NCBI GenBank assembly: GCA_945892755.1
Contig: CAMDDO010000001.1
Coordinates: 54,860-118,859, forward strand
DNA from: Rhizobium sp. Q54
GTDB taxonomy: Bacteria; Pseudomonadota; Alphaproteobacteria; UBA828
DNA length: 64,000 bases
Reading direction: 5' to 3'
Shown: one piece after another, positions 37,649-63,241 of the stretch
Position numbering within the stretch: the stretch's first letter is position 1
How the letters are laid out: each line of letters starts with the position of its first letter
Made by a program: the position numbers and the translations under genes
Notes under the pieces: generated by a model
What the model was told of the DNA's origin: nothing
Database searches by the model: none
The model's input: only the letters and a program-made list of their open reading frames with translations

Positions 37649-38680
37649 CTAATCGCGCAGCGTCAACAACACCTTCTGCCGGTAATTGTCGGCGATTACG
37701 GCCAAGACCAGCAGAATGCCGACCACGATCATCTGCTGATAGGAGCCGATGCGCATGAGGTTCATGCCGTTCTGCACCAGAATGATGAAGATCGCGCCGA
37801 GTACGACATTGGCGAGCCGACCTGTACCACCGAAGAGACTCACGCCGCCGATCGCGCAGGCCGCGATCGAGTTCAGCGGATAATCACTCCCGATATTCGA
37901 TTCGCCGCTTTCAAGGCGTGCGGTCAGCATCAGCGCCGAGACCGTCGTAATGGCGGCGCACACGACATAGGCCATGAACAAATAATAGCGCGTGCTGATG
38001 CCGGACAGCATCGAGGCCTTCAGATTGCCGCCAAGCGCATAAAAATATCGCCCCATGCGGGTCCAGGCCAACAGCACGTAGGTAATCACCACGAAGCCGA
38101 TGGTGATCCAGATCGGCACCGGCACGCCGAGCGCCGAGCCATAACCGAAGACGCCTGCGAATTCCTCGGGCATGCCATAGATCGGCGTGCCACCCGTGAT
38201 GGTGAGCGCGATGCCGAAGACGATCGTCGACATGGCGAGCGTCATGATGAAAGGCGGCACGCGGAAGACCGCGACACCGACGCCGTTGATCGCTCCAACG
38301 ATCAAGCCCGCGCCAAGCCCGGCCAGGCTGCCGAGGATGATCGAGCCCCACACCGCCTCCTTGCCCGAGGCGTTGAAATGATCGACCATCACCATCGAGC
38401 TGATCACCGAAACGATGGCAAAGATGACGCCGACCGAAAGATCGAGCCCGGCGGTCAGCAGCACAACCATTTGCGCCATCGCGACCATGACCAGATAGGT
38501 CGCCTGCCGGGCCACCAGCATGAAATTCTGCCCGGTCATGAAGGATTCGGTCGCGAAGGTGAAGATGATGATGGCGAAAACCAGAAACCACGGCAAAACA
38601 CCGCCGCGCACGAACACCTGCGCAGCCACGCGCTCGATCGAACCCATGAGTTCCACTTGCTTTCGCATGGCGCCGGCCAT
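37649..38680 (-). CDS. ABC transporter permease (RbsC-like)
   Basis: GLDLSVG, PPFIMTL, YALGGN, IAACAIGGVSLFGG; GGGGAG RBS before ATG 38680. Confidence 0.9.
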   Translation of the reverse strand: MAGAMRKQVELMGSIERVAAQVFVRGGVLPWFLVFAIIIFTFATESFMTGQNFMLVARQATYLVMVAMAQMVVLLTAGLDLSVGVIFAIVSVISSMVMVDHFNASGKEAVWGSIILGSLAGLGAGLIVGAINGVGVAVFRVPPFIMTLAMSTIVFGIALTITGGTPIYGMPEEFAGVFGYGSALGVPVPIWITIGFVVITYVLLAWTRMGRYFYALGGNLKASMLSGISTRYYLFMAYVVCAAITTVSALMLTARLESGESNIGSDYPLNSIAACAIGGVSLFGGTGRLANVVLGAIFIILVQNGMNLMRIGSYQQMIVVGILLVLAVIADNYRQKVLLTLRD

Positions 38681-38696
38681 CTCCCCGTCTCCCCAG

Positions 38697-40265
38697 CTAA
38701 ACCGTTTGTTTTTCGAAGAAGTGGCCGAGAACGGCCTGCTCGCTGATCTCTGCCTTGGGCAGCTCGGCACGCAATTCGCCCCGATACATGACGTAGGCGC
38801 GATTGGTCAGATGGAGGATCTCCGGCAAATCGGAAGAGATCAACAGAATGCCGGCGCCGGCCTCACAAAGCGTCTTGATGAAGTTATAGATATGAACACG
38901 GGCACCGACATCGACGCCGACCGTCGGCTCATCGAAAATGAACAGCTTTACGTCGCGCGCGAGTGATTTGCCGACCAGCACTTTTTGCTGATTGCCGCCT
39001 GAGAAATGCTCGAGCGCGCGCTCGACATTGGGCGGGTCGAGATCGAGCCGGCGCACCAAGTCCTTCACCACCGTACGCTCATTGGCGCGACGCAAGAAAA
39101 AGCCGTTCGAGAACGTGCGCAGCCAAAGCGACGAAAGCGCGATGTTCTCGCGCACGTTCTGCATCATCACCAGACCTTCTTGGCGACGATCCGACGGCAA
39201 ATAGTAAAGCCCGCGATCGAGCATGCGGCGCGGGCCCAGCTTGTTGGTCTTGCGCACCTCATAGACCACCTGGCCATTGAAAGAGATGCGCCCCGCGCTG
39301 ATTTTTTCCAAGCCAAAACAGGCGCGACCGATCTGTGATTTGCCTGAACCAACCAGGCCGGCGAGACCCACGATCTCGCCCGCGCGGACATTGATCGAGA
39401 CGTCGCGCACGCCGCCATCGGCGGTCGACAAATTCTCGATCTGAAGCAGATTGTCCTTCGGCGCGAAGTGCACCGCGGGGAAGACTTGATCGATGACCCG
39501 GCCGGTCATGAGCTCAACCAGCCTTTGATCGCTGGCTTCCTCGACCCCGATGGTCGCGACGAACTTGCCGTCGCGCAGCACCGTGATGCGATCGCCGATG
39601 CGCTTGATTTCGTTCATCCGATGCGTGATGTAGATGATCCCGATGCCTTCTTTCTTGATCTGCTCGATCAGCGCGAACAGGCGATCGGTTTCGCGCTCGG
39701 TCAAGGAGGCCGTGGGTTCATCGAAAATCATGACGGATGGTTTGGTGCGAAACGCCTTGGCGATTTCGACCATTTGTTGCTGCGCGCGCGACAGATACAT
39801 CACCAGGTCGCGCGGCTTGAGGTCGAAGCCGAGGCGATCGAGTACTTCGCGCGCCTGCCGGCGCAGGCCCACTTTGTCGAGCAGCGGGCCCTTGTGGACC
39901 TCGGAGCCGAGGAACAGATTGTCCTCGATGGAGAGTTGCGGCACCAGGGAGAACTCCTGGAATACCGCGCTAATGCCGAGCGCGCGCGCGTGGTGAACCG
40001 AGGAAATGCTGATCGGCTCGTCCTTGAAGAAGATTCGCCCGCCTGACGGCCGATGAACCCCAGCGATGATCTGAATCATCGTCGACTTGCCGGCCCCATT
40101 CTCGCCGAACAGGACGTGGACCTCGCCCGGTCGCACGTCGAAATTCACCTGATCGAGCGCGAGCGTGCCCGGGAACTGCTTGGAGATCGCCTCCAAGCGC
40201 AAAAGAACAGGAGCACCAGAACCTTTCGGTTCCGGGCTCCCAACATCATCGCTGACCATGGCCAT
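38697..40265 (-). CDS. ABC transporter ATP-binding protein (RbsA-like, fused double domain)
   Basis: GENGAGKST, DEPT, GLVGSGKS, SGGNQQK, DEPTVGVD. Confidence 0.93.
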   Translation of the reverse strand: MAMVSDDVGSPEPKGSGAPVLLRLEAISKQFPGTLALDQVNFDVRPGEVHVLFGENGAGKSTMIQIIAGVHRPSGGRIFFKDEPISISSVHHARALGISAVFQEFSLVPQLSIEDNLFLGSEVHKGPLLDKVGLRRQAREVLDRLGFDLKPRDLVMYLSRAQQQMVEIAKAFRTKPSVMIFDEPTASLTERETDRLFALIEQIKKEGIGIIYITHRMNEIKRIGDRITVLRDGKFVATIGVEEASDQRLVELMTGRVIDQVFPAVHFAPKDNLLQIENLSTADGGVRDVSINVRAGEIVGLAGLVGSGKSQIGRACFGLEKISAGRISFNGQVVYEVRKTNKLGPRRMLDRGLYYLPSDRRQEGLVMMQNVRENIALSSLWLRTFSNGFFLRRANERTVVKDLVRRLDLDPPNVERALEHFSGGNQQKVLVGKSLARDVKLFIFDEPTVGVDVGARVHIYNFIKTLCEAGAGILLISSDLPEILHLTNRAYVMYRGELRAELPKAEISEQAVLGHFFEKQTV

Positions 40266-40297
40266 GAATCGGACTCAAACGCCGATGGTCTTCGTGC

Positions 40298-41491
40298 TCA
40301 GTCGACCGTGAACACCGGCGTCCAACCTTCGGGCGCCAGGGTCGTCGCGGTATTGAAGTCCTTGATATTTTCCGGCGTGACATTGGTCGGCACCGGCTGC
40401 ACGTGCTCGGTGGTGAGGCCGGTCTTGTTGTATTCGGGTCGTCCGCCGGTAGCAAAGGGCTTCTTCTCCAGGATACGCACGGCCTGATCGATGCTAATCC
40501 GAGCTTGGATAATCATCTGGTCAGACGGGGCCATGGCCACGCGGCCCTGACCGACGAACATATGCATGCCTGGCGTGTAGTAATAAGCCACCAGCTTGAC
40601 CTGCTTCTCGATGCCACGCTCGCGCACCGCCGAAACTGCGGCTTCGATCGCCGGGGCCACGCCGACGATATAGTCGAGATCCGTCTTGCCGCCCGAGGAC
40701 TGCGCCTGGATGACGTCCTCGACTAGCGGCAGCTGAGTGTCCTTGTTTGTATTGCCCCATTTGGTGGAGATGAGTTCAGCGTCGCTGCCTTTCACGCCGG
40801 CGTTACAACCTTTGTCTCCTGCGACCGACCAACTGGCGCCGGGCGGGCCCGGGTACCAAGCGAGCTTCTTTTTGCCGCTACCGGCCGGATGTTGATCGGC
40901 AATCCACTTACAGGCGATGAAGCCCATGGTGTAGTAGCTCTCGAGCGATTTCGCATCGACCTTGGTGTCAATGCCGTTGATCAGGTCGATCGCAGGGAGG
41001 CCCTTACCGCGAATCTCCTCGATTTGCTTGGTGTTGCCATCGCCCGAAATCGCAGCAAAGATCAGCGCTTCTGCACCGTTGGCCACGCAATCTTCGATCT
41101 GGGCGATCTGCTTTTCGAGTTTGTCGTACCCGCCGGCCTCGACCAGCGTGATCTTCTGGCCGAGCCGCTTGCCTTCTTCGATGATGCCGTAGGCCGCCCC
41201 CACCCAATATGAATCCGCGAGGTGCGGGAACGACACGCAGATGTGGTGCTTCTTGGCGACATCGCCCGACATCAGCGGCACATAATCGACCACTTCTAGT
41301 TTGGCCGCGTCATTGGCCGGATCGGCCCAGCACTTGGGATCGCCGTCCGTGCAGGCCGGATTGTAGATTTGGACTTTGGCCGGCCACCATTGGGCCGCGT
41401 CTTCCGCCTTGGCTGCCGGTGCTTGCGTCAGTGCGCCGACGACCATCGCCGCGCCGAGCGCCAATCCGGCGCCGATTGATAAGATCTTCAT
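40298..41491 (-). CDS. Periplasmic binding protein, TorT-like
   Basis: Signal peptide ending AKA; ICVSFPHLADSYW and EAGGYDKLEKQIAQIEDC resemble TorT-family segments. Confidence 0.75.
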   Translation of the reverse strand: MKILSIGAGLALGAAMVVGALTQAPAAKAEDAAQWWPAKVQIYNPACTDGDPKCWADPANDAAKLEVVDYVPLMSGDVAKKHHICVSFPHLADSYWVGAAYGIIEEGKRLGQKITLVEAGGYDKLEKQIAQIEDCVANGAEALIFAAISGDGNTKQIEEIRGKGLPAIDLINGIDTKVDAKSLESYYTMGFIACKWIADQHPAGSGKKKLAWYPGPPGASWSVAGDKGCNAGVKGSDAELISTKWGNTNKDTQLPLVEDVIQAQSSGGKTDLDYIVGVAPAIEAAVSAVRERGIEKQVKLVAYYYTPGMHMFVGQGRVAMAPSDQMIIQARISIDQAVRILEKKPFATGGRPEYNKTGLTTEHVQPVPTNVTPENIKDFNTATTLAPEGWTPVFTVD

Positions 41492-42040: not shown

Positions 42041-42457
42041 ATGGCGACCAAGACAGGCGTGCAGCTCAATCTTGGCTATACGGCAACCGACGATTTCATC
42101 ACCCGCACCTGGATCCTGCCGCTTCTGGCCGACAAGGCGAAGCGCGCGAAATTGATCGAGGAGCATCGCAACAATCCGGTCGGCAAGCCGGGCAAGGCCG
42201 GCAAGGCGGCGGTACAGCACAGCGACGATCTCGCGCGCGTCATCGACAAATTTCGGCGCGCGCCGCAAGCCGGCAAATATGTTCGCATCGCGGTGGTGCC
42301 GCACAAGGAATACGCCATCGGCGTGCTTTCGGGCGTCCGCGGCAAGCCGGTCAAGGTGCTCGAGAACAAGACCTACAAGAGCGAAGACGAGTGCGAACAC
42401 GCGATCTTCGTGCGGCGCGTCGAAGACTTCTTGGCCGCCTATCGCGTGAAAAAATAA
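42041..42457 (+). CDS. dmfA1: N,N-dimethylformamidase small subunit-like protein
   Basis: LIEEHRNNPVG, HSDDLARV..FRRAP..GKY, EHAIFVRR; directly upstream of the large subunit; GGGAGG RBS. Confidence 0.72.
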   Translation: MATKTGVQLNLGYTATDDFITRTWILPLLADKAKRAKLIEEHRNNPVGKPGKAGKAAVQHSDDLARVIDKFRRAPQAGKYVRIAVVPHKEYAIGVLSGVRGKPVKVLENKTYKSEDECEHAIFVRRVEDFLAAYRVKK

Positions 42458-42539: not shown

Positions 42540-44900
42540 ATGCTTCGGATCGTGGGCTATTCGGATTGTTATTCGCTCCACCCCGGCGACACCATCAAGT
42601 TCTATGTCAATTCGGAGAAGGGTGAGTCGTATCAAGCTGACATCGTGCGCCTGATTCACGGCGACACCAACCCGGAGGGACCGGGCTTCAAGGAAGAAGT
42701 CAAAAAGACCCCGGTCAGCGCCAAATACAAGGGCCGCAACCAGAAGATCCATGGCGGCTCCTATGTGATCGTGCCGAACGATCCGCGCTTCAATCTTCAG
42801 AGCTTCACGCTGCAGGCGATGATTTTCCCGACCACGCCCGAAAAAGGCATGCAGGGCATCCTGACCAAATGGGACCATGGCAAGAAGGCGGGCTATGGCC
42901 TGATCATTGACGACAAGGGCTGCCTCGCGGTCGGCATCGCGAACGACAAGGGCAAGATGACCATGCTCTCGAGCGGCAAGAAGCTCCTGCGCAAGGTCTG
43001 GTACCTCGCCGCCGCGAGCTATGACGCGGAATCGGGCAAGCTCAAGCTTTATCAAATTCCGATCCCGACCTCGGCCAATGGCGGGCTTGGCATGTCGCTC
43101 GTGCATCCCTTGAGCGAAACCTCGCGCATCGTTTCGCAGGACGCCAAGCTCGGCGCACCCGCCGCCAATGACGCGCCGTTTCTGATGGGCGCCTGGGCGG
43201 AAAAGCCGCGCTCCGGCCGACGCATTTTCGGGGCGCATTACAAGGAAGCAACCAGCCCGGTCGAGCTCCCGGTTCAAGGCGGCTGTTATAACGGCAAGAT
43301 CGACCGGCCGCGGCTCGCCCGCCGCGCCCTCAGTCACGCCGAGATCGATGCGCTCGCGCGCGGCTACAGATATTGCCCGAGCGAATTGCGCAATGAGGTG
43401 ATCGCGGCGTGGGATTTCCACGCCAATATCAGCAACAACATCGCCTCGACCTACATCATCGACACCTCGACCAGTTTGTTGAACGGCCACGCGGTCAATC
43501 TGCCGGCGCGCGGCATGACCGGCTATAACTGGACCGCGGATGAGATCGTCTATCATCACAAGCCCGAGGAATATGGCGCGATCCATTTCCACGATGACGA
43601 CATCGACGATGCGCGTTGGGAAGTCGATTTCGAATTCACCGTGCCGGCTGGTTGGAAAAGCGGCGTCTATGCGGCGCGGCTCCGCATCAATGGGGAGTCG
43701 ACGCCCGAGACCGAGGACTATGTGCCGTTCTTCCTCCGTCCGCCCAAGGGCACGACCACGGCCGACATCTGCTTCATCGTGCCGCTGCAAAGCTACCTCG
43801 CCTATTCGAACGACAATCTCGGCGCGAACTCGGTCGCGGCCCAGTTGCTCGGTGGCAAAGTGCCAATCTTGCAGGCGTCCGACCTGTTCCTCAACGAACA
43901 CCGCGAATATGGCCTTTCGACATATTCATGCCACTCGGATGGCTCGGGCGTGTGCTATTCCTCGCGCCTGCGGCCCATTCTCAACATGCGGCCCAAATAT
44001 CGCCACTGGCTGTCGCCTTCGCTCTGGCAGCTCAATGGCGATCTGCACTTGACCGACTGGCTCGAGGAGATGGGCTTCAATTTCGACGTCCACACCGATG
44101 AGGATTTGCAACGCGAGGGCGTCGACCTGCTGAAAAAATACCGCGGGGTGCTGACCGGCACGCACCCGGAATATGCCTCCGAGAAAATGCTCGACGCCTA
44201 TGAGGCCTATCAGCAGCATGGCGGGCGTTGGCTCTATCTCGGCGCCGACGGCTTCTATTGGGTGACCGAATTCCACCCCGACAATTACAACATCGTCGAA
44301 GTGCGCAAGGGTGAGGCCGGCACGCGGGCCTGGACCGCCAATCCGGGCGAATACAACAACGCCTTCGATGGCAAATATGGCGGCATGTGGCGCGCGCGCG
44401 GACGTATCCCGACCAAGGTGTGCGGCCTCACCTTCACCGGCTATGGCTTCGACGTGTCGACTTATTATCGCCGCATGCCGGATAGCGAACGGCCCGAATG
44501 CGCCTGGATGTTCAACGGCATCGGCAAGGACGAGATCATCGGCGATTTCGGCCTGGTTGGCGGCGGCGCGGCAGGGCTCGAGATCGATCGCTATGACCTC
44601 GAATTCGGCACGCCGCACAATGCCTATCTGCTCGGACGCTCGGAAGGTCATACCGATCTGATGATGCAGGTAAACGAAGAAATTCATTTCACCTGTCGTG
44701 GCTATTATGGCGGCGGCGATGAGAACCCGATGATCCGTGCCGACATGATCTACTACAAGACGCCGAATGACGGCGGCGTATTCGCGCCCGGCTCGCTTGC
44801 CTGGTGCGGCTCGCTCTCGCACAACAATTACAAGAACAACGTCTCCAAACTGATGGAGAACGTGATCAAGGGTTTCCTGAAGCCGGGCCCCTTGCCCTGA
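42540..44900 (+). CDS. dmfA2: N,N-dimethylformamidase large subunit-like protein
   Basis: LIHGDTNPEGPG, LamG-like insert, HFHDDD, SGVYAARL, YLAYSN, GLSTY..HSDG, GTHPEY, GGAAGLEIDR, WCGSLSHN. Confidence 0.85.
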   Translation: MLRIVGYSDCYSLHPGDTIKFYVNSEKGESYQADIVRLIHGDTNPEGPGFKEEVKKTPVSAKYKGRNQKIHGGSYVIVPNDPRFNLQSFTLQAMIFPTTPEKGMQGILTKWDHGKKAGYGLIIDDKGCLAVGIANDKGKMTMLSSGKKLLRKVWYLAAASYDAESGKLKLYQIPIPTSANGGLGMSLVHPLSETSRIVSQDAKLGAPAANDAPFLMGAWAEKPRSGRRIFGAHYKEATSPVELPVQGGCYNGKIDRPRLARRALSHAEIDALARGYRYCPSELRNEVIAAWDFHANISNNIASTYIIDTSTSLLNGHAVNLPARGMTGYNWTADEIVYHHKPEEYGAIHFHDDDIDDARWEVDFEFTVPAGWKSGVYAARLRINGESTPETEDYVPFFLRPPKGTTTADICFIVPLQSYLAYSNDNLGANSVAAQLLGGKVPILQASDLFLNEHREYGLSTYSCHSDGSGVCYSSRLRPILNMRPKYRHWLSPSLWQLNGDLHLTDWLEEMGFNFDVHTDEDLQREGVDLLKKYRGVLTGTHPEYASEKMLDAYEAYQQHGGRWLYLGADGFYWVTEFHPDNYNIVEVRKGEAGTRAWTANPGEYNNAFDGKYGGMWRARGRIPTKVCGLTFTGYGFDVSTYYRRMPDSERPECAWMFNGIGKDEIIGDFGLVGGGAAGLEIDRYDLEFGTPHNAYLLGRSEGHTDLMMQVNEEIHFTCRGYYGGGDENPMIRADMIYYKTPNDGGVFAPGSLAWCGSLSHNNYKNNVSKLMENVIKGFLKPGPLP

Positions 44901-44922
44901 GCCTTTGGGCTCGCGATGATAG

Positions 44923-44956
44923 CGGGGCGGCTCGCAAGGGCCGCCCCGTTTGATTT
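44923..44956 (+). terminator. Intrinsic terminator-like hairpin after dmfA2
   Basis: CGGGGCGGCTC-GCAA-GGGCCGCCCCG followed by TTTGATTT. Confidence 0.6.
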
Positions 44957-44978: not shown

Positions 44979-45338
44979 ATGCCAACCGATCCTGATCGCT
45001 GGCTCAAGCCAGGCTACACGCCCTCCGCCAAAGTGCGGCCGACCGATCTCGACCGGCGGAGTCCGCGTTTGCCCGAGCTTCTCAAGGGGCTCGACCGAGA
45101 TAAGCTCGCCGAGTTCGCCCAGGTGCTGTTTCAGTTGAACGGTTTTCGGCGCGGACCCGTGAAGGGCTATTACGTCGTGGTCGAGACCAAGCCCGGCGTG
45201 GAATGGAAAGTCGGCCAGCTTTGCGCCGATCCTGACGCACCGCTCCATATCGTCGATGAGCGCAGCTTCGATAACAGCGATGAACCGCTGAAACTCGCCG
45301 AAGCGCTGCGCGCGGCCGACCCGCCGCGCTATGGCTGA
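44979..45338 (+). CDS. Hypothetical protein, partial paralog of the DMFase small subunit
   Basis: GGAGAGAGAGG RBS; FRRGPVKGYYVVVETKPGVEWKVG aligns without gaps to FRRAPQAGKYVRIAVVPHKEYAIG of 42041..42457. Confidence 0.7.
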   Translation: MPTDPDRWLKPGYTPSAKVRPTDLDRRSPRLPELLKGLDRDKLAEFAQVLFQLNGFRRGPVKGYYVVVETKPGVEWKVGQLCADPDAPLHIVDERSFDNSDEPLKLAEALRAADPPRYG

Positions 45339-46500
45339 ACGTCACGTCGAGATCGCCGGCGCAGGTTTCTCCGGCCTCACGATCGCGACCGCGCTCGCGC
45401 AACGTGGCTGGTCGGTGCGCGTGCATGAGCGCGCGCCCGAAGTGCGCGCCTTCGGCGCCGGCATTTGGTTGTGGGACAATGGCATCCGCGTGCTGAACGC
45501 GATCGGCGCGGCCGATGAGGCGCTCGACGGTTGCACCGAAGCCAAGGTCTGGGAAAGCTGGGACCGCACAGGCGACCTGATCGATCGCGTGCAATTCGGC
45601 ATCGGCGGCGGCTCACGGGTTTTTTGCGTCGTGCGCCAGCAATTACTGATGGCGATCCTGCACGCGGCGGAGCGCGCCGGTGTCGAGGTGTGCACCAATT
45701 CGGAAGCGGTTGGCGCGACGGCGGACGGCGCGCTCAAGCTCGCGAGCGGCGAAACGCTCAAGGCCGACCTCGTGATCGGCGCCGATGGTATCCGCTCGAA
45801 GGTGCGCGATTCGCTTGGCCTCTTGAAGCGCCGCCATGTTCATATCGACGGTGCGATTCGCGTGTTGATCCCGCGCACCGCCGAGGAATACGAAACCGAG
45901 GAAGGCCGCAAAATCCGCGAATGGTGGTATGGCTCGCGCCGCCTGCTCTATACACCCTGCAGCAAGGACGTGGTCTATCTCTGCTTCACCATGATGGCGC
46001 GTGACAAGGAGGCGGCCGAGATTCCCTTGCGCAAGGAAGTCTGGGCCCGGAGCTTTCCCCAACTGAAGCACATGATCGATCGGGTCGGCACCGACGGCCG
46101 TTATGATCGCTTCGAGACCTCGAGACTGCATCGCTGGTCGAAGGGCCGGGTCGCGATCATGGGTGATGCCGCGCATTCCATGTCGCCGGGCCTCGGCCAA
46201 GGCGGCGGCTCATCGCTCGTTAGCGCGCTTACCTTGCCGGCGCTGATTGACGAGATGGGCGCGATCGAGCCCGCGCTTGAGGCCTGGGAAACAGCGCTTC
46301 GCCCCTTGGCCGAACACACCCAGCGCTGGTCGAAGATCACCTGGCCCTTGATTCCCTGGCCGGCCTGGGTTGCGCGGCGCTATTACGCCTTCCCGCTGGC
46401 GAAAGGCTGGATCGCCAAGCAGCGCATGCGCCCATCGCTCCACGTCGCGAAGGGAACGGAGGGTCACAGGCTCTGGGTGCCAACAAGAGCGGGCGTGTAA
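45331..46500 (+). CDS. FAD-dependent monooxygenase, MHPCO (hydroxypyridine ring-cleaving oxygenase)-like
   Basis: EIAGAGFSG, RAFGAGIWLWDNG, NSEAV, GADGIRSKVRDS, LYTPC, GDAAHSM.PGLGQG. Confidence 0.85.
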   Translation: MAERHVEIAGAGFSGLTIATALAQRGWSVRVHERAPEVRAFGAGIWLWDNGIRVLNAIGAADEALDGCTEAKVWESWDRTGDLIDRVQFGIGGGSRVFCVVRQQLLMAILHAAERAGVEVCTNSEAVGATADGALKLASGETLKADLVIGADGIRSKVRDSLGLLKRRHVHIDGAIRVLIPRTAEEYETEEGRKIREWWYGSRRLLYTPCSKDVVYLCFTMMARDKEAAEIPLRKEVWARSFPQLKHMIDRVGTDGRYDRFETSRLHRWSKGRVAIMGDAAHSMSPGLGQGGGSSLVSALTLPALIDEMGAIEPALEAWETALRPLAEHTQRWSKITWPLIPWPAWVARRYYAFPLAKGWIAKQRMRPSLHVAKGTEGHRLWVPTRAGV

Positions 46501-48474: not shown

Positions 48475-48512
48475 GGCTAACTCCTTCGCGGGCGAACGCG
48501 CCCGAAAGCGGT

Positions 48513-53219: not shown

Positions 53220-53402
53220 CTTCCGACCCGCCATCTGGCTCGTGGCGCCAAGACCGGCGCCTGATGAACGCAATAATAGGGTGAACCGCCCGAAATATGT
53301 CAAGCCAATTTGCGCCAATTGGTTCCGTGCGGTGTAATTTTCTGGCATTCTGCGTCGCAATGAATCAGAATGGCTAGTCCAATGTCAGGAAGGCGTCGCC
53401 CC

Positions 53403-55070: not shown

Positions 55071-55140
55071 ACCGATGCGCGGCGCATTGGCGGTACCGCT
55101 TGCTGATTAGCCTGTTCGACAATGAGGGAGAGAGAACAAT

Positions 55141-56001
55141 ATGAAACCCGCGCCCTTTCGCTATGTGCGCGCCCGCTCGGTGGATGATGCCGTGGCGGCG
55201 CTGGCACGCGACCCCGAGGCGAAGCTGCTAGCCGGTGGCCAGAGCCTGATCGCCATGATGAATGTTCGAGCGGTCAAGCCCGAGACATTGGTCGACATCA
55301 ACGCGCTTTCGGCGCTCGACTATATCAAAGTCAAGGATGGCGGCATCGCGATCGGTGCGATGACGCGCCATGAAACGGTGAAGAGTTCGCCTTTGGTCGC
55401 AGAGCATTGCCCGCTCTTGGCCGAGGCCTATCACTGGATCGCGCATCGTGCGGTCAGGAACCGCGGCACCTATGGCGGCAATTTGTGCCACGCCGACCCG
55501 GCCTCGGAGAACCCGGCGGTTGCCTTGGTCACCGGCGCGACCATGGTGCTGAAAAGCGCCAAGGGCGAGCGCACCGTGGCGGCCGATGATTTCTTCAAAG
55601 GCGTCTACCAAACCGCGGCGAGGCACGACGAACTCCTCATCGAAGTGCGCATCCCCTCACGGCCCAAGGGCCAGGGCTGGGGCTTCATGGAAGTCAGCCC
55701 GCGCAAGGGCGATTTCGCGATGACCGCGGTGGTCTGCACGCTCGAGCTGGCCGGCGCCACGGTGAAGACGGCGCGCGTCGCCTATGCCGGCATCGCCGAT
55801 CGGGCGATGCGGTTCGCGCCCGTCGAAGCGGCGCTTACCGGCAAGCCGGCCAATGAGGCAACCTTTGCGGCCGCCGGCGCGGCGGCGCGCAAGGCGATCA
55901 ATCCGTCGTCGGATTTCCATGCCGACGAAGCCATGCGGCGCGACCTCGCGGAGACATTGACGCGCCGCGTGCTGGCCGCTGCCAAAGCGCGCTGCACCTG
56001 A
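55141..56001 (+). CDS. Mo-hydroxylase FAD subunit (CoxM-like)
   Basis: MKPAPF, LAGGQSL, RNRGTYGG..HADP. Confidence 0.92.
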   Translation: MKPAPFRYVRARSVDDAVAALARDPEAKLLAGGQSLIAMMNVRAVKPETLVDINALSALDYIKVKDGGIAIGAMTRHETVKSSPLVAEHCPLLAEAYHWIAHRAVRNRGTYGGNLCHADPASENPAVALVTGATMVLKSAKGERTVAADDFFKGVYQTAARHDELLIEVRIPSRPKGQGWGFMEVSPRKGDFAMTAVVCTLELAGATVKTARVAYAGIADRAMRFAPVEAALTGKPANEATFAAAGAAARKAINPSSDFHADEAMRRDLAETLTRRVLAAAKARCT

Positions 56002-56012
56002 GGGAGAAAAAA

Positions 56013-56492
56013 ATGAGCAACGAGAAAATCACGATCACGGTGAACGGCAAGCGCTATGACAAAGAGGTCGAGCCACGCCGCCTGCTGAGCGACTTCATTC
56101 GCGACGATCTGCGCCTGACCGGCACCCATGTCGGCTGCGAGCATGGCGTGTGCGGCTCGTGCACGGTTCTGATGAACGGCAAATCGGTGCGCTCCTGCCT
56201 GACCTTCGCGGTGATGGCCGATGGCGCCGAGATCATGACCATCGAAGGCCTTGGCACCGCCGAGAACATGCACCCGCTGCAAAAAGGCTTTTGGGAGAAG
56301 CACGGGCTCCAATGCGGTTTCTGCACGCCCGGCATGCTGATGACCGCGGTCGAGCTGCTGAAAGAGAAACCGCGACCGAGCGTCGATGAGATTCGCGAAG
56401 CCTTGTCGGGCAATCTCTGCCGCTGCACCGGTTATCAAACCATCGTCGAATCGATTCAGCGTGGCGCCGAGATCATGCAGGGAGGCAAATAA
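56013..56492 (+). CDS. Mo-hydroxylase 2x[2Fe-2S] subunit (CoxS-like)
   Basis: GCEHGVCGSCT, QCGFCTPG, NLCRCTGY. Confidence 0.95.
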   Translation: MSNEKITITVNGKRYDKEVEPRRLLSDFIRDDLRLTGTHVGCEHGVCGSCTVLMNGKSVRSCLTFAVMADGAEIMTIEGLGTAENMHPLQKGFWEKHGLQCGFCTPGMLMTAVELLKEKPRPSVDEIREALSGNLCRCTGYQTIVESIQRGAEIMQGGK

Positions 56493-58969
56493 TGGCTCAG
56501 AACCGCGGTCATATTCCGAAGAGCCGGCAGCGCGAGAAACCGCGCGAGGGGCTGAAATATATCGGCAAGAGCATGAAGCGGGTGGAAGACCCGCGCATCC
56601 TGACCGGGCGCGGCATCTATGCCGACGATATCAATCTGCCCGACATGGCGCATGTCGCGATCGTGCGGAGCTCCCACGCACACGCCCGCATCAAGCGCAT
56701 CGATACCTCGAAGGCTGAAAAGCTTCCGGGCGTGCTCGCCGTGCTAACCGGCGCGCAAGCCGCAGAGCTGACCGGGCCGCTGCCGACCTGGTCGAGCCCG
56801 CCGGTCTTTCAGCGGGTCATCGCGCACGAGAAGGTGCGTCATGTCGGAGAGGCGGTCGCGGCAGTCTGCGCCGAGAGCCGCTATATCGCGGAGGATGCTT
56901 GCGATTTGATCGAGGTCGAGTACGAGCCTCTGCCCATCGTGGTCGATCCCGAGGAGGCCCTGAAGTCGCGTGGCGATGCCGTGCTTCACCCCGACCATGG
57001 CGACACCAACCTCATCCTCGAAAGCAAATTCGATTTCGGCCCGGTCGCCGAGGATTTCGCGCGTGCCGATCATGTCGTCAAGCGGCGCCTCCGCTGGCCG
57101 CGCTCGGGCGGCACGCCGATGGAGACCAATGGCGCGACCGCCGTGTGGGATCCTGGCTCGCAGCGCTTCACCATCCACGCCAATACCTCAATGTATAATT
57201 TCGTCGGCTGGATGATCGCGGACACGCTGAAAGTTCCGCATCACAAGCTGAATATCGTGCCGACACTCGCCGGCGGCTCGTTCGGCGCCAAGCTGTTCCT
57301 CTATAAGCAGCCAGTGATGGCGGCGATGTTCGCGAAGCTCGTTGGACGGCCGGTGAAATATCTCGAGGACCGGCTCGATGCCTCTCTCAACAACGACGCC
57401 CACGCTTCCGACCGCGTCTATTATGTCGAGCTCGCCTGCAAGAAAGACGGCACGCTGCTCTCCTTCAAGCAGCGCATCATCGATGACTATGGCGCCTATT
57501 TCCAATACGGCGTCGGCCAGCACGGCAACGCACTCGCCCAAGTGGTCGGGGCCTATGCGATCAATTCGGTCGGCGTCCATGTGCAAGCCGTGCTGACCAA
57601 CAAGAATCAACAGGGCGCCTATCGCGGCTTCGGCTCCGAGGTGGCGAATTTCGTGATCGAGCGCTTGGTCGACGCGGCGGCGGACGAACTCAAGCTCGAC
57701 CGCATCGAAATTCGGCGAAAGAATTTCATCAAGAAGGATCAGTTCCCGTTCCTGATCCCGACCGGCAACATGTACGATTCGGGTGATTACGAGAAGGTAC
57801 TCGATGAGACGCTGAAACTGCTCGACTACAAGGGCTGGAAGAAGAAGGTCGAAGAAATGCGCAAGGCCGGCCGCTATGTCGGCATCGGCATCGCCTCGAC
57901 CCAGGAACGCAGCGTGTTTTCCTCGACCGAGTTCTGGATGTGGAATCTCGACGGCAAGATCGGCTGGACCTCATCGCCCGATTCGATGTCGCTCAAGATC
58001 GATCCGCGCGGGCGCATTTATGGCACGCTTCATTCGCCGTTTTGGGGCAACAGCCCCGAGACGGTGGCGACCCAAGTGATCGCCGAGCAGTTCCAGGTTG
58101 ATCCCTCGAACATCGAGATCACCTATTCGGATTCCGACAAGGGCCTGCATTCGACCGGGCCAGGCGGCAGCCGCTTCACGGTGATGGTGACTGGCGCGAT
58201 CGTCGGCGCGGCGGCAATCCTGAAGAAGAAGATTTTCAAGATCGCCGCGCACATGATGGAGGCCAATGCGGACGATCTCGAGCTGAGAGACGGCAATGTC
58301 GTGGTCAAGGGTGCTCCGGGCAAGAAGGTCTCGCTGCAAGACCTCGCCTTCCACGCCTATTATATGCGCCTCTCAATGCCCGACCCCGAAGATCCGGAGC
58401 TAACCAGCGGGCTCGATGCCACGTATGTCTACGATCACCCGGTGACCACATTGCCCGATCCGAAGCGCGAGCACATGGGCATTTTCTATCCGATCATGGG
58501 CCATATGTGTCATTCGATGGTGGTCGAGGTCGACCCCGAGACCGGGCAATTCAAGTTCCTCGATTATGCCTGCGTCCATGATTCGGGCGTCATGATCAAT
58601 CCGATGACGCTCGAAGGCCATATGCGTGGCGGCGTCGTGAACGGCATCGGCAGTGCCGCCAGCGAGCAGTATTTCTACGATAAGAACGGCCAGCCGACCA
58701 ACAACCTGTTCACCGATTACATTATCCCCTCGATCAGCGAATCGCCGGCCGACATGAAATGTGGCCATGTCGAAACACCCTCGCCCTTCACCGAATATGG
58801 CATCAAGGGCGGCGGCGAAGGCGGCCGCATGGGCACGCCGCCCGCGCTTGCGCAAGCAATCGAGGACGCGCTCAGTCCGTTCGGTATCAAGATCACCGAG
58901 CTGCCATTGACGCAAAACGTAATCCGCCGTCTGGTGCGCGAGGCCCAAGCCAAGAAGGCAGCGGATTGA
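56492..58969 (+). CDS. Xanthine-dehydrogenase-family molybdopterin subunit (CoxL-like, not form I CODH)
   Basis: RVEDPR, GGSFGAK, AYRGFG, YDSGDY, GGSR, INP, KGGGEGG. Confidence 0.9.
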   Translation: MAQNRGHIPKSRQREKPREGLKYIGKSMKRVEDPRILTGRGIYADDINLPDMAHVAIVRSSHAHARIKRIDTSKAEKLPGVLAVLTGAQAAELTGPLPTWSSPPVFQRVIAHEKVRHVGEAVAAVCAESRYIAEDACDLIEVEYEPLPIVVDPEEALKSRGDAVLHPDHGDTNLILESKFDFGPVAEDFARADHVVKRRLRWPRSGGTPMETNGATAVWDPGSQRFTIHANTSMYNFVGWMIADTLKVPHHKLNIVPTLAGGSFGAKLFLYKQPVMAAMFAKLVGRPVKYLEDRLDASLNNDAHASDRVYYVELACKKDGTLLSFKQRIIDDYGAYFQYGVGQHGNALAQVVGAYAINSVGVHVQAVLTNKNQQGAYRGFGSEVANFVIERLVDAAADELKLDRIEIRRKNFIKKDQFPFLIPTGNMYDSGDYEKVLDETLKLLDYKGWKKKVEEMRKAGRYVGIGIASTQERSVFSSTEFWMWNLDGKIGWTSSPDSMSLKIDPRGRIYGTLHSPFWGNSPETVATQVIAEQFQVDPSNIEITYSDSDKGLHSTGPGGSRFTVMVTGAIVGAAAILKKKIFKIAAHMMEANADDLELRDGNVVVKGAPGKKVSLQDLAFHAYYMRLSMPDPEDPELTSGLDATYVYDHPVTTLPDPKREHMGIFYPIMGHMCHSMVVEVDPETGQFKFLDYACVHDSGVMINPMTLEGHMRGGVVNGIGSAASEQYFYDKNGQPTNNLFTDYIIPSISESPADMKCGHVETPSPFTEYGIKGGGEGGRMGTPPALAQAIEDALSPFGIKITELPLTQNVIRRLVREAQAKKAAD

Positions 58970-59006
58970 TGCAGAAGCGGGCCGGCACGAGGCAGAGCGC
59001 ACGCGC

Positions 59007-59903
59007 GTGACCGGCCCGCTCTCTTCCATCGCGGCGGTTGAGGCCGGGCTCGCGGCGCATGGCTACGTCGCCGACCGGAGGCTCGCGACCGCGGTCTTTC
59101 TGGCGCTTGAAATAGGCAAGCCGCTGTTCCTCGAAGGTGAACCCGGCGTCGGCAAGACCGAGATCGCCAAGGCACTCTCCGCTCTTCTCAAGCGCCCCCT
59201 GATTCGCCTGCAATGCTATGAGGGCCTCGACGTTTCGACCGCGGTCTATGAGTGGGATTATGCGCGACAAATGCTCGCGATCCGGCTCATCGAGGCGATG
59301 GGCGAGGCCGACGAGGCGCGCGCGGAAGAGCGCATCTTCGCGCGCAAATATTTGCTGAAGCGCCCGCTGTTGGAAGCGGTCGAGCCGAGCGGCGGTCAGC
59401 CGGTCGTGCTCTTGATCGACGAGCTTGATCGGGCGGACGAGGAGTTCGAGGCCTTTTTGCTGGAATTCCTCTCGGAATACCAGATCAGCGTGCCCGAGAT
59501 CGGCACCATCAAGGCCGCGCGGCCACCCGTGGTGATCATCACGTCGAACCGCACGCGCGAGATTCACGACGCGCTGAAGCGCCGTTGCTATTACCAGTGG
59601 ATCGATTATCCAAGCTTCGAGAAGGAATGCGCGATCGTCAAAGCGCGCGCACCCAAGGCCTCCGCTGCGCTCACCGCCGAGGTCGTTCGCTTCGTCCAGG
59701 CGCTGCGCGCCGAAGACGTTTATAAGCGCCCTGGCGTCGCCGAAACGCTCGATTGGATGGCGGCGCTTGGCGCGCTCGACCGCGAGACATTGTCGGAAAG
59801 CGTGGTCGATGACACGCTCGGCGTGCTGCTGAAATATCGCGACGATGTCGCGCAGATCGAGGGCGCCGCGGTCAAGCGCTTGCTGCGCCGCCCGCATGGC
59901 TGA
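59007..59903 (+). CDS. MoxR AAA+ ATPase, CoxD-like
   Basis: GEPGVGKT, RLQCYEG, IDELDRAD, TSNRTRE, ALKRRC. Confidence 0.92.
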   Translation: MTGPLSSIAAVEAGLAAHGYVADRRLATAVFLALEIGKPLFLEGEPGVGKTEIAKALSALLKRPLIRLQCYEGLDVSTAVYEWDYARQMLAIRLIEAMGEADEARAEERIFARKYLLKRPLLEAVEPSGGQPVVLLIDELDRADEEFEAFLLEFLSEYQISVPEIGTIKAARPPVVIITSNRTREIHDALKRRCYYQWIDYPSFEKECAIVKARAPKASAALTAEVVRFVQALRAEDVYKRPGVAETLDWMAALGALDRETLSESVVDDTLGVLLKYRDDVAQIEGAAVKRLLRRPHG

Positions 59904-61155
59904 GGCGCCGGGCCATCTGCTCGACAATTTGATCCGCTTCGCCGAGATATTACGCGGTCTTGGCATCAGGGTGACGGCGCGGCAGATCGCCGAGCTCGGC
60001 CACGCCTTGACGCTGATCGACATTGTCGAGCGCGAGGACGTACGCGCGGCGGCCGGGACCATCTTTGTTCGGCGCAAAACTGATATCGCGTTGTTCGAGA
60101 TGGCGTTCGATCAATTCTTCCGTGATCCCGCGACGCGCTTCAAGAATCAGAGCCTGCCGCAGCGCTTCAGCGTCAATCGCCCGCCGGCCGCCAACGCAAC
60201 CGAAAGCGCGCTGACGCGGAGCGAGGCGGAATCGCAACAAGCCCAGACGACGAACGACGAGCGGAACGGGCCATCGCAGGGCCTTGGCGTCGCCGAGGCC
60301 GAAGGCGCTCAAGGCGGCGATGAGGCGGAGGAAATGACGCTCGCGAGCTATAGCCCCTCGGCGTCGCTCCGCCACAAGGACTTTGCCGAGATGAGCCAGT
60401 CCGAGCTCGACGCGGTGAAGCGGTTTTTGCGTGATCGCCATTTCGATTTCGCCGGCCGTATTACGCGCCGCCTCCGGCGCGCTGGGCGCGGGCCGAGGCT
60501 CGACATGCGGCGTATGCTGAAAAGCGAAGCGAACACAGCGCTTCAACCGCCGACGCTTCGCTTCCGTGCCAAAAAGCTGAAGCCACGTCCGATCGTCGTG
60601 TTGTGCGATGTCTCGGGCTCGATGGAGCCCTATGCGCGCATCTTGCTGGCGTTCGTCTATGCGCTGACGCACGAGGCGCGGCGCGTGGAAGCCTTTGCCT
60701 TTTCAACCGAGCTCAGCCGCATCACGCGCGCCTTGAAGGAGCGCGAGATCGACGGTGCGCTGCGCCATGCTGCCGCGACGATCCATGATTTTGCCGGCGG
60801 CACGCGCATCGGCGCGGCGCTAAAGAATTTCAATTTCGATTGGGCGCGGCGCGTGCTGGGCGGCGGCTCGATCGTATTGATCATTTCCGATGGCTGGGAT
60901 CGCGGCGATACCGAGCTTCTGGCGCGCGAAATGGAACGGCTGAATCTGTCGTGCCACGCTTTGGTTTGGCTCAACCCCTTGGCCGGCATGGCGGGCTTCG
61001 AGCCGCTCACCAAGGGGCTTTTGGCCGCGCTACCTTTCGTCGATCACTTTCTGCCGATCCACAATCTCGACAGTCTGGAGAAGCTCGCCCGGCTCCTCAC
61101 CGTGCTCGACTCGCCCCTTCCCCTCCGCCGCGCCGTGCGGCTGAGAGCGGCGTGA
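59896..61155 (+). CDS. VWA-domain protein, CoxE-like
   Basis: CDVSGSM MIDAS, FST, GGTRIG, ISDGWD, WLNP. Confidence 0.92.
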   Translation: MAEAPGHLLDNLIRFAEILRGLGIRVTARQIAELGHALTLIDIVEREDVRAAAGTIFVRRKTDIALFEMAFDQFFRDPATRFKNQSLPQRFSVNRPPAANATESALTRSEAESQQAQTTNDERNGPSQGLGVAEAEGAQGGDEAEEMTLASYSPSASLRHKDFAEMSQSELDAVKRFLRDRHFDFAGRITRRLRRAGRGPRLDMRRMLKSEANTALQPPTLRFRAKKLKPRPIVVLCDVSGSMEPYARILLAFVYALTHEARRVEAFAFSTELSRITRALKEREIDGALRHAAATIHDFAGGTRIGAALKNFNFDWARRVLGGGSIVLIISDGWDRGDTELLAREMERLNLSCHALVWLNPLAGMAGFEPLTKGLLAALPFVDHFLPIHNLDSLEKLARLLTVLDSPLPLRRAVRLRAA

Positions 61156-61171
61156 CGGCATGCCGTCCCTT

Positions 61172-61332: not shown

Positions 61333-61350
61333 AATATGAGAAAGGCACGC

Positions 61351-61743
61351 TTAGGCCGCCTTCACCACCTGTTTCCAATAGGTGTCCTTCTTGGTGATCT
61401 TGCCGCCTTTCAGCTCCCAAATGTCGACGCCGAGCCAATTGATGCGCGGGCCGGATTTCGGCGTGCCGGTTACCGTCCACTCTGAGCAAACGAGGTTGCC
61501 GCTCGCGAAGTGACGGATGACGGCCCAGTTCATATCGGGAATGTCGCGAAAGCGCTGTGTGAGCAACGCGCGAATCTCCGCCTTGCCGTTGAGCTTGCGC
61601 CCGTCCGGGTTGGGTCCGAGCGCCAGCAGCCAGACCGAGGCATCGGCGAAATCCGACAAAATGCCCTCGATATCGTGGCGGTTGAACGCGTCGCAGCAGC
61701 GCTCGATCACCGCCAGAGCGTTTGCTTCGTCAGTCTTTCCCAT
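61351..61743 (-). CDS. SnoaL/NTF2-like protein
   Basis: DAFNRHD, GKAEIR, IPD, SEWTVTG, GVD, KDTYWK. Confidence 0.85.
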   Translation of the reverse strand: MGKTDEANALAVIERCCDAFNRHDIEGILSDFADASVWLLALGPNPDGRKLNGKAEIRALLTQRFRDIPDMNWAVIRHFASGNLVCSEWTVTGTPKSGPRINWLGVDIWELKGGKITKKDTYWKQVVKAA

Positions 61744-61834
61744 CGCCATCACCCCAAGCCTCTTTGATTTGCCATCGGCGCCAATGCCAAACTAGGATGA
61801 CCGGCAAGCGGTCGTCAACGCGCGGGGGGCTCCC

Positions 61835-63241
61835 ATGGCTGGCACTCTGATCACGGGCGGCACGATCATCGATTGCACCGGCGGGAAGCCGAAGAAGAAC
61901 ACCGCGCTGTTCGTCGAGAACGGGCGTATCGCGAAGCTCGGCACGGCCGAGGCGGTCAAGGCCTTCGCCGCCAAGCGCGGCCCGCATAAGACGATCGACG
62001 CGAGCGGCATGACCGTGATGCCCGGCTTGGTCGATGCGCATTGTCATATTTCGTACGGCGACATTCTCTCGGTCGAGGAGCTTGATCTTTATGCCGGCGT
62101 CGAGTTTCGCGCCATTCGTGCCGCGCATAACGCCAAGAAGGTCTTGCGCGCCGGCGTCACCGCGATTTGCGATCCGGGCTCGACCTGGAATATTTCAGTC
62201 GCGGTCAGGGATGCGATCAATTGCGGCATGATCGAGGGCCCGCGCATGGCGTCCGCGGGCCGCTATATCACTACCTTCAACGCGATCGGCTCGTTCTGGC
62301 CGACCTGGATGGAGCACCCGCAATCATCCTTCGCGGTCCTGTGCAATTCGCGGGATGAGATGATCACCGAGGTCAGGCGCGAGGTGAAGGAGGGCGTCGA
62401 TATCGTCAAGGTGGCGGGCGATGGCGATGCGGTGCAAAGCCACGCGCGCGAATCGGAAGGCAGTCTTTCGCCAGACGATCTCCGCGCGATCGCCGATACG
62501 ACCCACCGCCTGGGCCGGCGCTGCACCATCCACGCGCGCACCGGCGTGGTCGCCGCGGCGGCGGCCGAGGCCGGCTTCGATTGGTTGATCCATGCCTCCT
62601 ATCTGAACGATCAGCAGCTCGGCGTGATTTTGCGTAAGCGCACGCCGATCAACCCGACGCTCTCCCTCCTCGCCAACGCGGTCGATTGGGCGCCCGAGCT
62701 TGGCGCGCCGGCCGGTTTGATCGAGGCCTATAAGCGCGAGCTCGAGGCGGCCAGTCGCGGCCTCTCCAAGGCTTACAAAGAAGGCGTCATGATCATGGCC
62801 GGCACCGATAGCGGCCAAGGTGCCGTGCCTTATGGCGAGTGGCATGCGCGCGAGCTCGAGCATTTGATGAATTATCTGGGCCTAAGCGCGATGGACGCGC
62901 TCAAGGCCGGCACCATCCATGCCGCGGTCGCGACCGGGATGCAGAACGAGATCGGCACGCTCGAGGAAGGCAAATATGCCGATATTCTCGTGGTCGACGG
63001 CGATCCTCTCGCCGACATCCAAGTGTTGCAGGACAAGGCACGGCTCAAGGTGATCATGAAGGGCGGCGTGGTGATCGATACCGAAACGCCGCTGCCCGAG
63101 CGCTCGATCTATGCCTGGGAAAAGCCCATGCTCTATTGGAACGACCCGCGCCTCCCCGGCCAGGACTATGTGCGCCAGCACGCCGCCAACAAGCCGGATT
63201 GGATGAAGAAGAAGGCGTCCTCCCGCCGCGCGGCGGAGTAG
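61835..63241 (+). CDS. Metal-dependent amidohydrolase (paralog of 33971..35332)
   Basis: PGLVDAHCH, GVDIVK, IHAR, IHAS, GTDSG, PYGEWHARELE; ends RRAAE. Confidence 0.88.
   Translation: MAGTLITGGTIIDCTGGKPKKNTALFVENGRIAKLGTAEAVKAFAAKRGPHKTIDASGMTVMPGLVDAHCHISYGDILSVEELDLYAGVEFRAIRAAHNAKKVLRAGVTAICDPGSTWNISVAVRDAINCGMIEGPRMASAGRYITTFNAIGSFWPTWMEHPQSSFAVLCNSRDEMITEVRREVKEGVDIVKVAGDGDAVQSHARESEGSLSPDDLRAIADTTHRLGRRCTIHARTGVVAAAAAEAGFDWLIHASYLNDQQLGVILRKRTPINPTLSLLANAVDWAPELGAPAGLIEAYKRELEAASRGLSKAYKEGVMIMAGTDSGQGAVPYGEWHARELEHLMNYLGLSAMDALKAGTIHAAVATGMQNEIGTLEEGKYADILVVDGDPLADIQVLQDKARLKVIMKGGVVIDTETPLPERSIYAWEKPMLYWNDPRLPGQDYVRQHAANKPDWMKKKASSRRAAE

Follow-up and report, generated by a model that had tools for sequence, protein, structure and literature searches.

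A probably mosaic catabolic region of Rhizobium sp. Q54 and a candidate glutamate-based route for dimethylamine

Do the amide and amine genes that lie side by side in a 64,000-nucleotide stretch of the Rhizobium sp. Q54 genome (G000:C1:54860-118859; this whole stretch is called the window) encode one pathway, and which amine do they handle? The genome, G000, has a size of 3.27 Mb and its completeness is given as 100%; G### labels denote genomes, L### loci, and C## contigs of G000. An initial annotation had joined a TorT-like importer, an N,N-dimethylformamidase (DMFase)-like amidase, an MHPCO-like oxygenase, a glutamine synthetase (GS)-like ligase with mgsABC and an FAD dehydrogenase, a FadR regulator, a short-chain dehydrogenase (SDR), a molybdenum hydroxylase, a SnoaL protein, and an amidohydrolase into one route from N-methylamides or N-methyl heterocycles into the N-methylglutamate (NMG) pathway. 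According to Pfam, NCBIfam, and PDB searches all these genes are intact open reading frames between 37649 and 63241, and to them the small amidase subunit alpha, its paralogue alpha', a gene for a 149-residue protein (orf149), and two upstream amidohydrolases have to be added (Table 1). The region is very probably a mosaic of at least three separately travelling modules and not one pathway. Whether the core of the mosaic is a dimethylamine route, in which the DMFase-family amidase would release dimethylamine and a GS-like/MgsABC-like operon would capture it on glutamate instead of Dmm, seems to us evenly balanced. The complete reading, to which we assign a probability of roughly 0.3, is that the operon encodes a so far undescribed dimethylamine pathway, ATP-dependent and running via gamma-glutamyl-dimethylamide and N,N-dimethylglutamate, with a new 149-residue subunit, that it replaces Dmm in SAR11 and in about half of the roseobacter-type genera using trimethylamine N-oxide (TMAO), and that it is naturally fed by the three-gene amidase clade. 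In the literature searched, as far as accessible, no publication was found that describes this pathway or assigns the operon or the amidase clade.

The ligase of the operon is not GmaS. Against the GmaS model TIGR03105 it scores about 292-302 bits at a cut-off of 469.6, it is about 30% identical to GmaS, and in the ligase tree it is placed apart from GmaS and grouped with ligases that adjoin P450 or PhyH genes. The true gmaS of G000 (658.7 bits) is located on contig C69 beside mgdABCD-like genes. Canonical gmaS is also co-present in 20 of 28 ligase-positive genomes, and the window ligase is thus not simply a stand-in for GmaS. The Mgs-like subunits comprise the GATase-II, GXGXG, and FMN parts in tandem and share 33-53% identity with the canonical set. 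In a tree of eight rows the MgsC-like protein has its own clade (99/99) and the canonical proteins form a pair (100/99); judged by this tree, the window set is not orthologous to the MgsC clade linked to gmaS. The separate ligase clade, the gmaS-mgd genes on C69, and the association with TMAO demethylase described below speak against the assignment of the GS-like gene and mgsABC to a monomethylamine/NMG pathway. If the operon has the proposed function, some 'gmaS/mgs' annotations would belong to a different pathway.

The composition of the operon was compared in metagenome loci (the best 80 of 585, many of them short). MgsA is found in 78 of these, mgsB in 67, mgsC in 57, the GntR regulator in 49, orf149 in 43, and the FAD gene in 37, while a DMFase is found in two and an MHPCO homologue in none. 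The whole-operon check covered part of the ligase-positive genomes; in one of them (G081) the ligase adjoins mgd genes without mgs. Orf149 has no match in Pfam, NCBIfam, Atlas, or fold searches (structure model with a pLDDT of 75, best fold with a Z of 3.0), of which the blank Atlas result says nothing on novelty. The FAD protein is not a four-subunit MgdABCD or heterotetrameric sarcosine oxidase, because it is encoded by a single gene and scores 65 bits against TIGR01373; four-gene sets are present on C69 and C86. The FAD gene occurs in 23 of 28 ligase-positive genomes.

Further sets of this kind are encoded in G000 on C75, C88, and C27 (L109, L110, and L111). The MgsABC-like set on C75 has its own GS-like gene and is found 3.6 kb from another DMFase paralogue, in the set on C88 the B and C subunits are fused and genes for an Fe-S flavoprotein and an amidase come next, and the set on C27 comes after two Rieske oxygenases.

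The product of the TMAO demethylase Tdm is dimethylamine. Tdm, scored over the NCBIfam cut-off, is the commonest outside neighbour of the operon (24 of the 80 ligase loci), and DmmA and DmmC were found in none of these loci. If the operon replaced Dmm (the DIMETHYLAMINE idea), every tdm-positive genome should contain one or the other. This was tested in a class sample of 301 genomes and in a sample of family f82 with 101 genomes, one per genus. The class sample contains the ligase in 29 genomes, full-length Tdm in 20, and DmmC in four. Sixteen of the 20 Tdm genomes have only the ligase, three have only DmmC, none has both, and the one genome with neither has a contig that stops within tdm. The Tdm count was lowered from 22 to 20 because two matches of 48-49% (G253 and G226) lack the first ~170 residues, and it may be missing some Tdm because the search scored three candidates per genome; one DmmC-positive genome (G050) gave no Tdm match. 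In f82, where the DmmC query found 16 of the 101 genomes, Tdm is present in 30, of which 14 have only the ligase, 15 only DmmC, none both, and one neither, and the operon ligase is absent from all 71 Tdm-negative genomes. A 55% ligase match in G401 was excluded because it lies in a GS-GS-P450 set; including it would result in one genome with both. Loci were fetched for eight of the 14 genomes, and all eight have the GS-mgsABC-orf149 core within 20 kb of tdm, five of them with tmm too. A Tdm tree of 32 rows requires four changes of state, of which at least three are forced. As an alternative marker of dmm we considered PF11927, which matched 34 of the 301 genomes; four of the top matches, when fetched, showed no similarity to a real DmmC, and the DmmC protein was used as query instead. 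In the PF11927 search of G000 itself the control was silent.

The same arrangement is found in SAR11. A Pelagibacteraceae genome has the order tmoX-tdm-FAD-GS-mgsABC-orf149-amt-gmaS, with proteins 58-78% identical to those of the window. This order matches the published SAR11_1302-1310, a match of gene order only, without direct comparison to the HTCC1062 sequence. SAR11_1302 has been described as TMAO-binding (PMC11485210), SAR11_1304 as 'monomeric sarcosine oxidase', 1305 as glnT, 1308 as gltB2, and 1310 as amt (PMC3160333, PMC3870248). SAR11 has been reported to be without dmm (PMC5520151), and it has been proposed that HTCC1062 'may recruit an isoenzyme' for the dimethylamine step (PMC8918994). 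GmaS itself seems poorly suited, as the table in PMC7948447 gives RhGmaS a Km of 16 mM for dimethylamine vs 27 uM for monomethylamine. Taken together, the operon probably handles dimethylamine.

If so, where does Rhizobium sp. Q54 obtain its dimethylamine? The initial annotation correctly noted that a dimethylamine monooxygenase is missing from the window, and the genome search was negative as well: tblastn gave no match in G000 for DmmA and DmmC at E 1e-3, and no match for Tdm and Tmm. The absence of dmm is better explained by the operon replacing dmm than by an amidase that avoids dimethylamine. With no match for tdm, tmm, and dmm, the genome would need a different source of the amine; the amidase is adjacent to the operon.

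This amidase belongs to a supported clade (96/98), whose members are 69-92% identical to it among the best 80 of 331 relatives (loci with at most 10 kb per side, many shorter) and which is frequent in Pelagibacteraceae and in marine and lake proteobacteria. The large subunit keeps the Fe ligands Y422, Y462, and E544 as well as H542 and E681 (equivalent to Tyr399/Tyr440/Glu521, His519, and Glu657), and these residues are retained in 79-80 of 80 clade members. The conserved unit is alpha-beta-alpha', with the alpha family in 73 of 81 loci and alpha' in 75 of 80, and alpha' is thus a fixed third gene of the clade. By Foldseek the top match of alpha' is 6LVV_B, which at an E of 0.33 is not significant. 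The 83-nucleotide segment between beta and alpha' folds with -44.1 kcal/mol (z -3.8, one of 200 shuffles equally good). This hairpin, which was not among the results of the terminator scan, is possibly an attenuator or stabiliser that would tune the subunit ratio. In SAR11 the amidase is surrounded by flotillin, rhodopsin, sodium symporter, and carboxylase/oxoprolinase-like genes, and it has been named, but not tested, in the SAR11 flotillin-associated rhodopsin (FAR) cluster (PMC10308929). G000 encodes five DMFase paralogues in total, four of them in addition to this one, and its genus-mate G194 has DMFases, although neither this clade nor the ligase.

Some relatives of the amidase have peculiar surroundings. 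On plasmid p1 of Aminobacter niigataensis DMFA1 (L001, 9232-14345) a flotillin gene stands directly before the amidase unit, an arrangement shared with the SAR11 rhodopsin cluster. L022, L024, and L028 contain a tandem pair of alpha-beta-alpha' units next to PhyH, two GS-like genes, and a class-I GATase; the second copy clusters in the tree with the enzyme encoded on the Aminobacter DMFA1 plasmid. The large-subunit gene of the closest relative (L011:949-3309), whose product is 92% identical, has an in-frame stop toward the C-terminal part and is either a broken gene or an assembly error. One of the DMFase paralogues of G000 and an ABC importer are preceded by a gene of the phage major capsid E family (G000:C25, L113:1144-1971).

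The link between amidase and operon extends beyond this genome. Fifty of the 80 genomes with the amidase clade were tested, many of them incomplete, and 39 have the ligase (31 at 71% or higher and eight at 64-68%) vs 29 of the 301 genomes in the class sample, where it is found in 11 of the 26 DMFase-positive genomes. The two units are adjacent and convergent also in the closest relative, G306, and form a single co-oriented run in G005. In four gammaproteobacterial loci the neighbours of the same amidase clade are PhyH, a class-I GATase, and two GS-like genes. The association, though genuine, is loose. Of the initial proposal that a DMFase is connected to the NMG pathway, the connection to the glutamate module therefore stands and the identity of that module does not. 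That this amidase feeds dimethylamine to the operon falls slightly short of even odds.

From the chemistry of the enzyme families the following route can be imagined. The Fe amidase would hydrolyse N,N-dimethylformamide (DMF) or a related small N,N-dimethyl amide to dimethylamine, and the ligase would build gamma-glutamyl-dimethylamide from glutamate, ATP, and dimethylamine. The GATase-II subunit would free the amine to the FMN subunit, where N,N-dimethylglutamate would be formed with 2-oxoglutarate. The FAD protein, or another enzyme of the sarcosine oxidase type where it is absent, would strip one methyl group to give N-methylglutamate, from which MgdABCD on contig C69 would regenerate glutamate. 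The conversion of dimethylglycine to sarcosine and glycine is a parallel, and glutamylation of a secondary amine, piperidine, reportedly takes place in Pseudomonas. The dimethylglutamate chemistry is somewhat doubtful.

Several observations weigh against the proposed dimethylamine route. The window ligase retains all mapped amine-site residues of GmaS as listed in PMC7948447, namely Lys30', Tyr147, Gln175, Asp177, Glu179, Glu186, Asn188, Trp300, and Arg312 (mapped via the alignment with Ponticoccus GmaS), and the first seven of these and the Trp are invariant across 120 homologues. The sequence alone therefore shows no switch to a secondary amine. Eight of the 29 ligase-positive genomes in the class sample have neither a Tdm nor a DMFase match. 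The Fisher probability (2e-7 in f82) overstates the alternation, because among kin only three to four swaps are independent, and a common habitat and relatedness raise the 39 of 50 figure. Five of 28 genomes have no FAD gene, and it is also missing from three of five further genomes tested (G388, G353, and G412, f82 genomes picked since their loci lacked it), and as an accessory gene it is weakened as the sole dimethylamine oxidase. Because G000 is without canonical mgsABC, the window set may also serve methylamine or take the product of GmaS. Amidase and operon are adjacent in only two of 80 loci and, being convergent in the window, are not one transcript. The large subunit is just 41% identical to DmfA2 and has Asp570 at the position of the oxyanion residue Asn547 of the DMF-hydrolysing enzyme, EC 3.5.1.56 (Asp in 63 and Asn in 17 of the 80 clade loci), and the N547A mutant of the Paracoccus DMFase is inactive (PMC7686228). 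The pAMI5 paralogue, which is 40% identical and also has Asp at this position, has not been connected with DMF use (PMC4543880). A histamine-dehydrogenase-like flavoenzyme is encoded on C31. Lastly, the literature searched, as far as accessible, shows no assay of the operon enzymes or of this amidase clade.

The C31 flavoenzyme (G000:C31:30837-32921, L217) belongs to the histamine/trimethylamine dehydrogenase family, and its neighbours are two SDRs and an ABC binding protein. Histamine dehydrogenase is its better match (718 vs 589 bits), which makes it a possible but weaker candidate for a dimethylamine or trimethylamine dehydrogenase.

Which other explanations are conceivable? The amidase could act on another amide, such as N-methylformamide (NMF), an N-acyl amino acid, or a lactam-derived amide, and be a neighbour of the dimethylamine operon only through the catabolic island. 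The rare adjacency, the Asp at the Asn547 position, the five paralogues in G000, the oxoprolinase/urea-carboxylase-like genes in the SAR11 flotillin-rhodopsin cluster, and the N-acetyl-beta-phenylalanine acylase within the family all agree with this explanation. However, amidases were repeatedly and independently placed next to ligases of this family (G000/G306, G005, the PhyH loci, and a 46-47% paralogue in L121 and L128), and G000 is without a tdm or tmm match as dimethylamine supply. We regard this explanation as unlikely.

Rather improbable is a scheme in which methylamine arises from dimethylamine, or from another methylated amine, through oxidation by the FAD protein, with the GS-like and Mgs-like genes as a divergent second methylamine pathway. 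It would be consistent with the intact GmaS amine site, with the proposal that SAR11_1304 is a general amine oxidase (PMC3870248, PMC5520151), and with G000 and the SAR11 loci L206/L207, which have gmaS without a canonical mgs set beside it. However, six ligase genomes with tdm and without DmmC (G060, G078, and G088 in addition to the three f82 genomes) gave no match for the FAD gene, which is present in the dmm-positive G297, and the frequent co-presence of ligase and gmaS speaks against this scheme as well.

The initial model is highly improbable. According to it, the molybdenum enzyme and the MHPCO-like oxygenase open an N-methyl heterocycle, the amidase frees methylamine from the resulting N-methylformamide-type amide, and the NMG pathway takes over. 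The MHPCO-like gene overlaps alpha' by eight bases, the G306 cluster retains an MHPCO homologue, and in three of 80 loci TorT-ABC and CoxMSL orthologues are found around the amidase. The Paracoccus DMFase also favours NMF over DMF, with an efficiency about 24 times higher (PMC7686228, Table 1), so that the suggested preference for NMF holds for that known enzyme. However, the co-occurrence of modules does not agree with a single pathway. The 80 amidase loci contain no MHPCO and no SnoaL gene, TorT and CoxL orthologues (71%) in three each, mgsABC in two, and a window-type ligase in six, and the ligase loci, as given above, are equally devoid of MHPCO. In G306 the identity of the MHPCO homologue is 61%, against 84-91% for the genes around it, and the ligase, which is distinct from GmaS, goes with Tdm. 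Entry from trigonelline or homarine found no backing either: between 31.8 and 64 kb Pfam revealed no Tgn- or Hom-type set of a two-component flavin ring-opening pair, a hydrolase, and an aldehyde dehydrogenase in one operon, Tgn and Hom proteins not having been queried, and the homarine route yields N-methylglutamate directly from the ring (PMC13236597).

The least probable alternative is that another secondary amine, cyclic or N-methyl-alkyl, is the substrate of the operon and that the operon only co-occurs with TMAO use. Sister ligases accompanied by a second GS-like gene, a class-I GATase, and P450 or PhyH, an arrangement that resembles piperidine glutamylation, as well as ligase-positive genomes without tdm could be quoted for it, but it is opposed by the position of the operon inside tmm-tmoXWV-tdm islands and by the strict alternation with DmmC.

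In L117, L118, L260, and L209 the sister ligases occur as GS-GS pairs next to P450 or PhyH genes and a GATase, and the second GS is without several amine-site residues. This suggests a two-subunit ligase for other secondary amines.

The remaining genes lie outside the proposed dimethylamine core. The TorT importer, amh1/amh2, and the molybdenum enzyme make up a module of their own, which may provide the amide in certain lineages. TorT-ABC, amh2 (often with amh1), and the CoxMSL enzyme (65-72%) recur together with the amidase in G307, G308, and G333; the same module is present without the amidase in G304, and G342 has torT-ABC-amh2. The orthologues of the SDR-CoxMSL region lie beside torT-ABC in these four CoxMSL-containing genomes. 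The TorT-like protein, which resembles the periplasmic sensor of the TMAO-reductase system (with torSR/torCAD) and here heads the ABC importer operon, is found at 60% or higher in 11 of the 50 amidase-clade genomes. The CoxMSL-type enzyme scores 381-451 bits to solved molybdenum enzymes, and its CoxL as well as the MHPCO-like protein (E 8e-82 across residues 4-332) are below every NCBIfam equivalog cut-off. The MHPCO-like gene, the SDR, SnoaL, and amh3 are local additions. The position of the MHPCO-like gene is not conserved, and in G306 orf149 follows directly after alpha' and the MHPCO homologue is beside amh3. SnoaL and amh3 orthologues were seen only in G306 among the loci examined.

Upstream, window positions 31849-36476 contain an intradiol-dioxygenase-like gene, an alpha/beta hydrolase, and RidA before amh1/amh2, syntenic in G306. 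The catabolic island begins beside aroA and extends beyond the window, where a further CoxLSM set follows (L249). Including the five DMFase paralogues, G000 has an unusually rich set of N-heterocycle and amide enzymes, with CoxL-like matches at 14 places in 3.3 Mb. The GC content of the region is a few points under that of the flanks, and a promoter and terminator scan of the window gave results at chance level. The one RNA run with matches had a share of 0.08 in short contigs only. Neither amh2 nor the FAD gene had a homologue in plasmid searches, and the contexts of the plasmid CoxL matches were uninformative.

Table 1. Position, strand, and supporting evidence of the features in the window.
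Feature	Position	Strand	Evidence
Amidohydrolase amh1, PF01979, TorT-importer module	33971..35332	+	67-70% orthologues near amidase in 5/80 loci
amh2, Amidohydro_2, PF04909	35406..36476	+	adjoins torT-ABC in G304, G306, G342; in 4/80 amidase loci
Sugar-type ABC importer: permease, ATPase, TorT-like binding protein	37649..41491	-	Pfam, NCBIfam
TorT-like binding protein	40298-41491	-	NF008185 287 bits (cut-off 200); TIGR02955 213.7 (below 310)
DMFase small subunit, DmfA1-like, alpha	42041..42457	+	32% to pAMI2 DmfA1, E 5e-12; PDB 6LVB_B E 1.6e-5
DMFase-family large subunit, beta	42540..44900	+	PF20254; 626 bits to PDB 6LVB; 41% to pAMI2 DmfA2
GC-rich hairpin between beta and alpha'	44921..44951 (ends approximate)	+	folding of 83-nt segment
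Second small-subunit paralogue alpha', 119 aa	44979..45338	+	hhalign to alpha family 98.1%, E 7.6e-14; Atlas PF26354
MHPCO-like flavin monooxygenase	45331..46500	+	278 bits to MHPCO
orf149, 149-aa protein, last gene of glutamate module	46621..47070	-	43/80 ligase loci, median 74%
MgsC-, MgsB-, MgsA-like (FMN/Fe-S domain, GXGXG, N-terminal-Cys GATase II)	47080..50296	-	53%, 37%, 33% to Ponticoccus mgs-type proteins
GS-like ligase, putatively gamma-glutamyl-amine forming, not GmaS	50328..51809 (likely start 51794)	-	TIGR03105 below cut-off; separate clade
DAO-family FAD oxidoreductase, SAR11_1304 type by gene order	51876..53234	-	Pfam; accessory
GntR/FCD regulator, divergent from glutamate module	53403..54122	+	49/80 ligase loci
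SDR, CoxM/S/L-type Mo-hydroxylase, CoxD, CoxE	54312..61155	+	Pfam, NCBIfam; 1/80 ligase loci
SnoaL protein (-) and amidohydrolase amh3 (+)	61351..63241	mixed	Pfam; 82% and 88% orthologues in G306

The absence of dmm in SAR11 has been regarded as a metabolic bottleneck that explains dimethylamine aerosols (PMC5520151). A widespread operon alternating with dmm would, if the proposed function is true, remove this bottleneck and point to the genes concerned. Its link to a DMFase clade common in SAR11 gives a clue to what an enzyme family known from a man-made solvent acts on in nature, and if the amidase were the natural feeder, DMF or a related dimethylamide would be a natural nutrient in lakes and oceans.

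Compared to known systems, the amidase resembles the Paracoccus DmfA1A2 (PDB 6LVB; pAMI2) in the order of small and large subunit, the 2-Tyr-1-Glu iron site, and the His519 and Glu657 equivalents, but it is 41% identical and in a separate clade, has Asp for Asn547 and alpha' after beta, and its host is without dmm. Much closer is the amidase of the SAR11 FAR cluster (PMC10308929), which belongs to the same clade, is 73-74% identical, and has the same alpha-beta-alpha' unit. With the NMG pathway (GmaS TIGR03105, PDB 7CQL; MgsABC; MgdABCD) the operon shares the amine-site residues and the three-piece glutamate-synthase-like enzyme, whereas the 149-residue gene, the single FAD protein, the order GS-mgsABC, and the co-present true gmaS are different. 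The MHPCO-like protein is similar to MHPCO of vitamin B6 degradation (278 bits) but not conserved with the amine module, and the molybdenum enzyme is similar to quinoline 2-oxidoreductase and 6-hydroxypseudooxynicotine dehydrogenase of the CoxMSL type (381-451 bits). To DmmDABC the operon has no sequence relation, and heme oxygenase chemistry would contrast with the predicted ATP-dependent glutamylation; according to its distribution, however, it has the same position in the pathway after Tdm. A counterpart of the operon is SAR11_1304-1309 of Ca. Pelagibacter ubique HTCC1062, which has the same gene order, as established via the Pelagibacteraceae locus matched to the published tags, and which follows tdm there, whereas the operon adjoins the amidase in the window.

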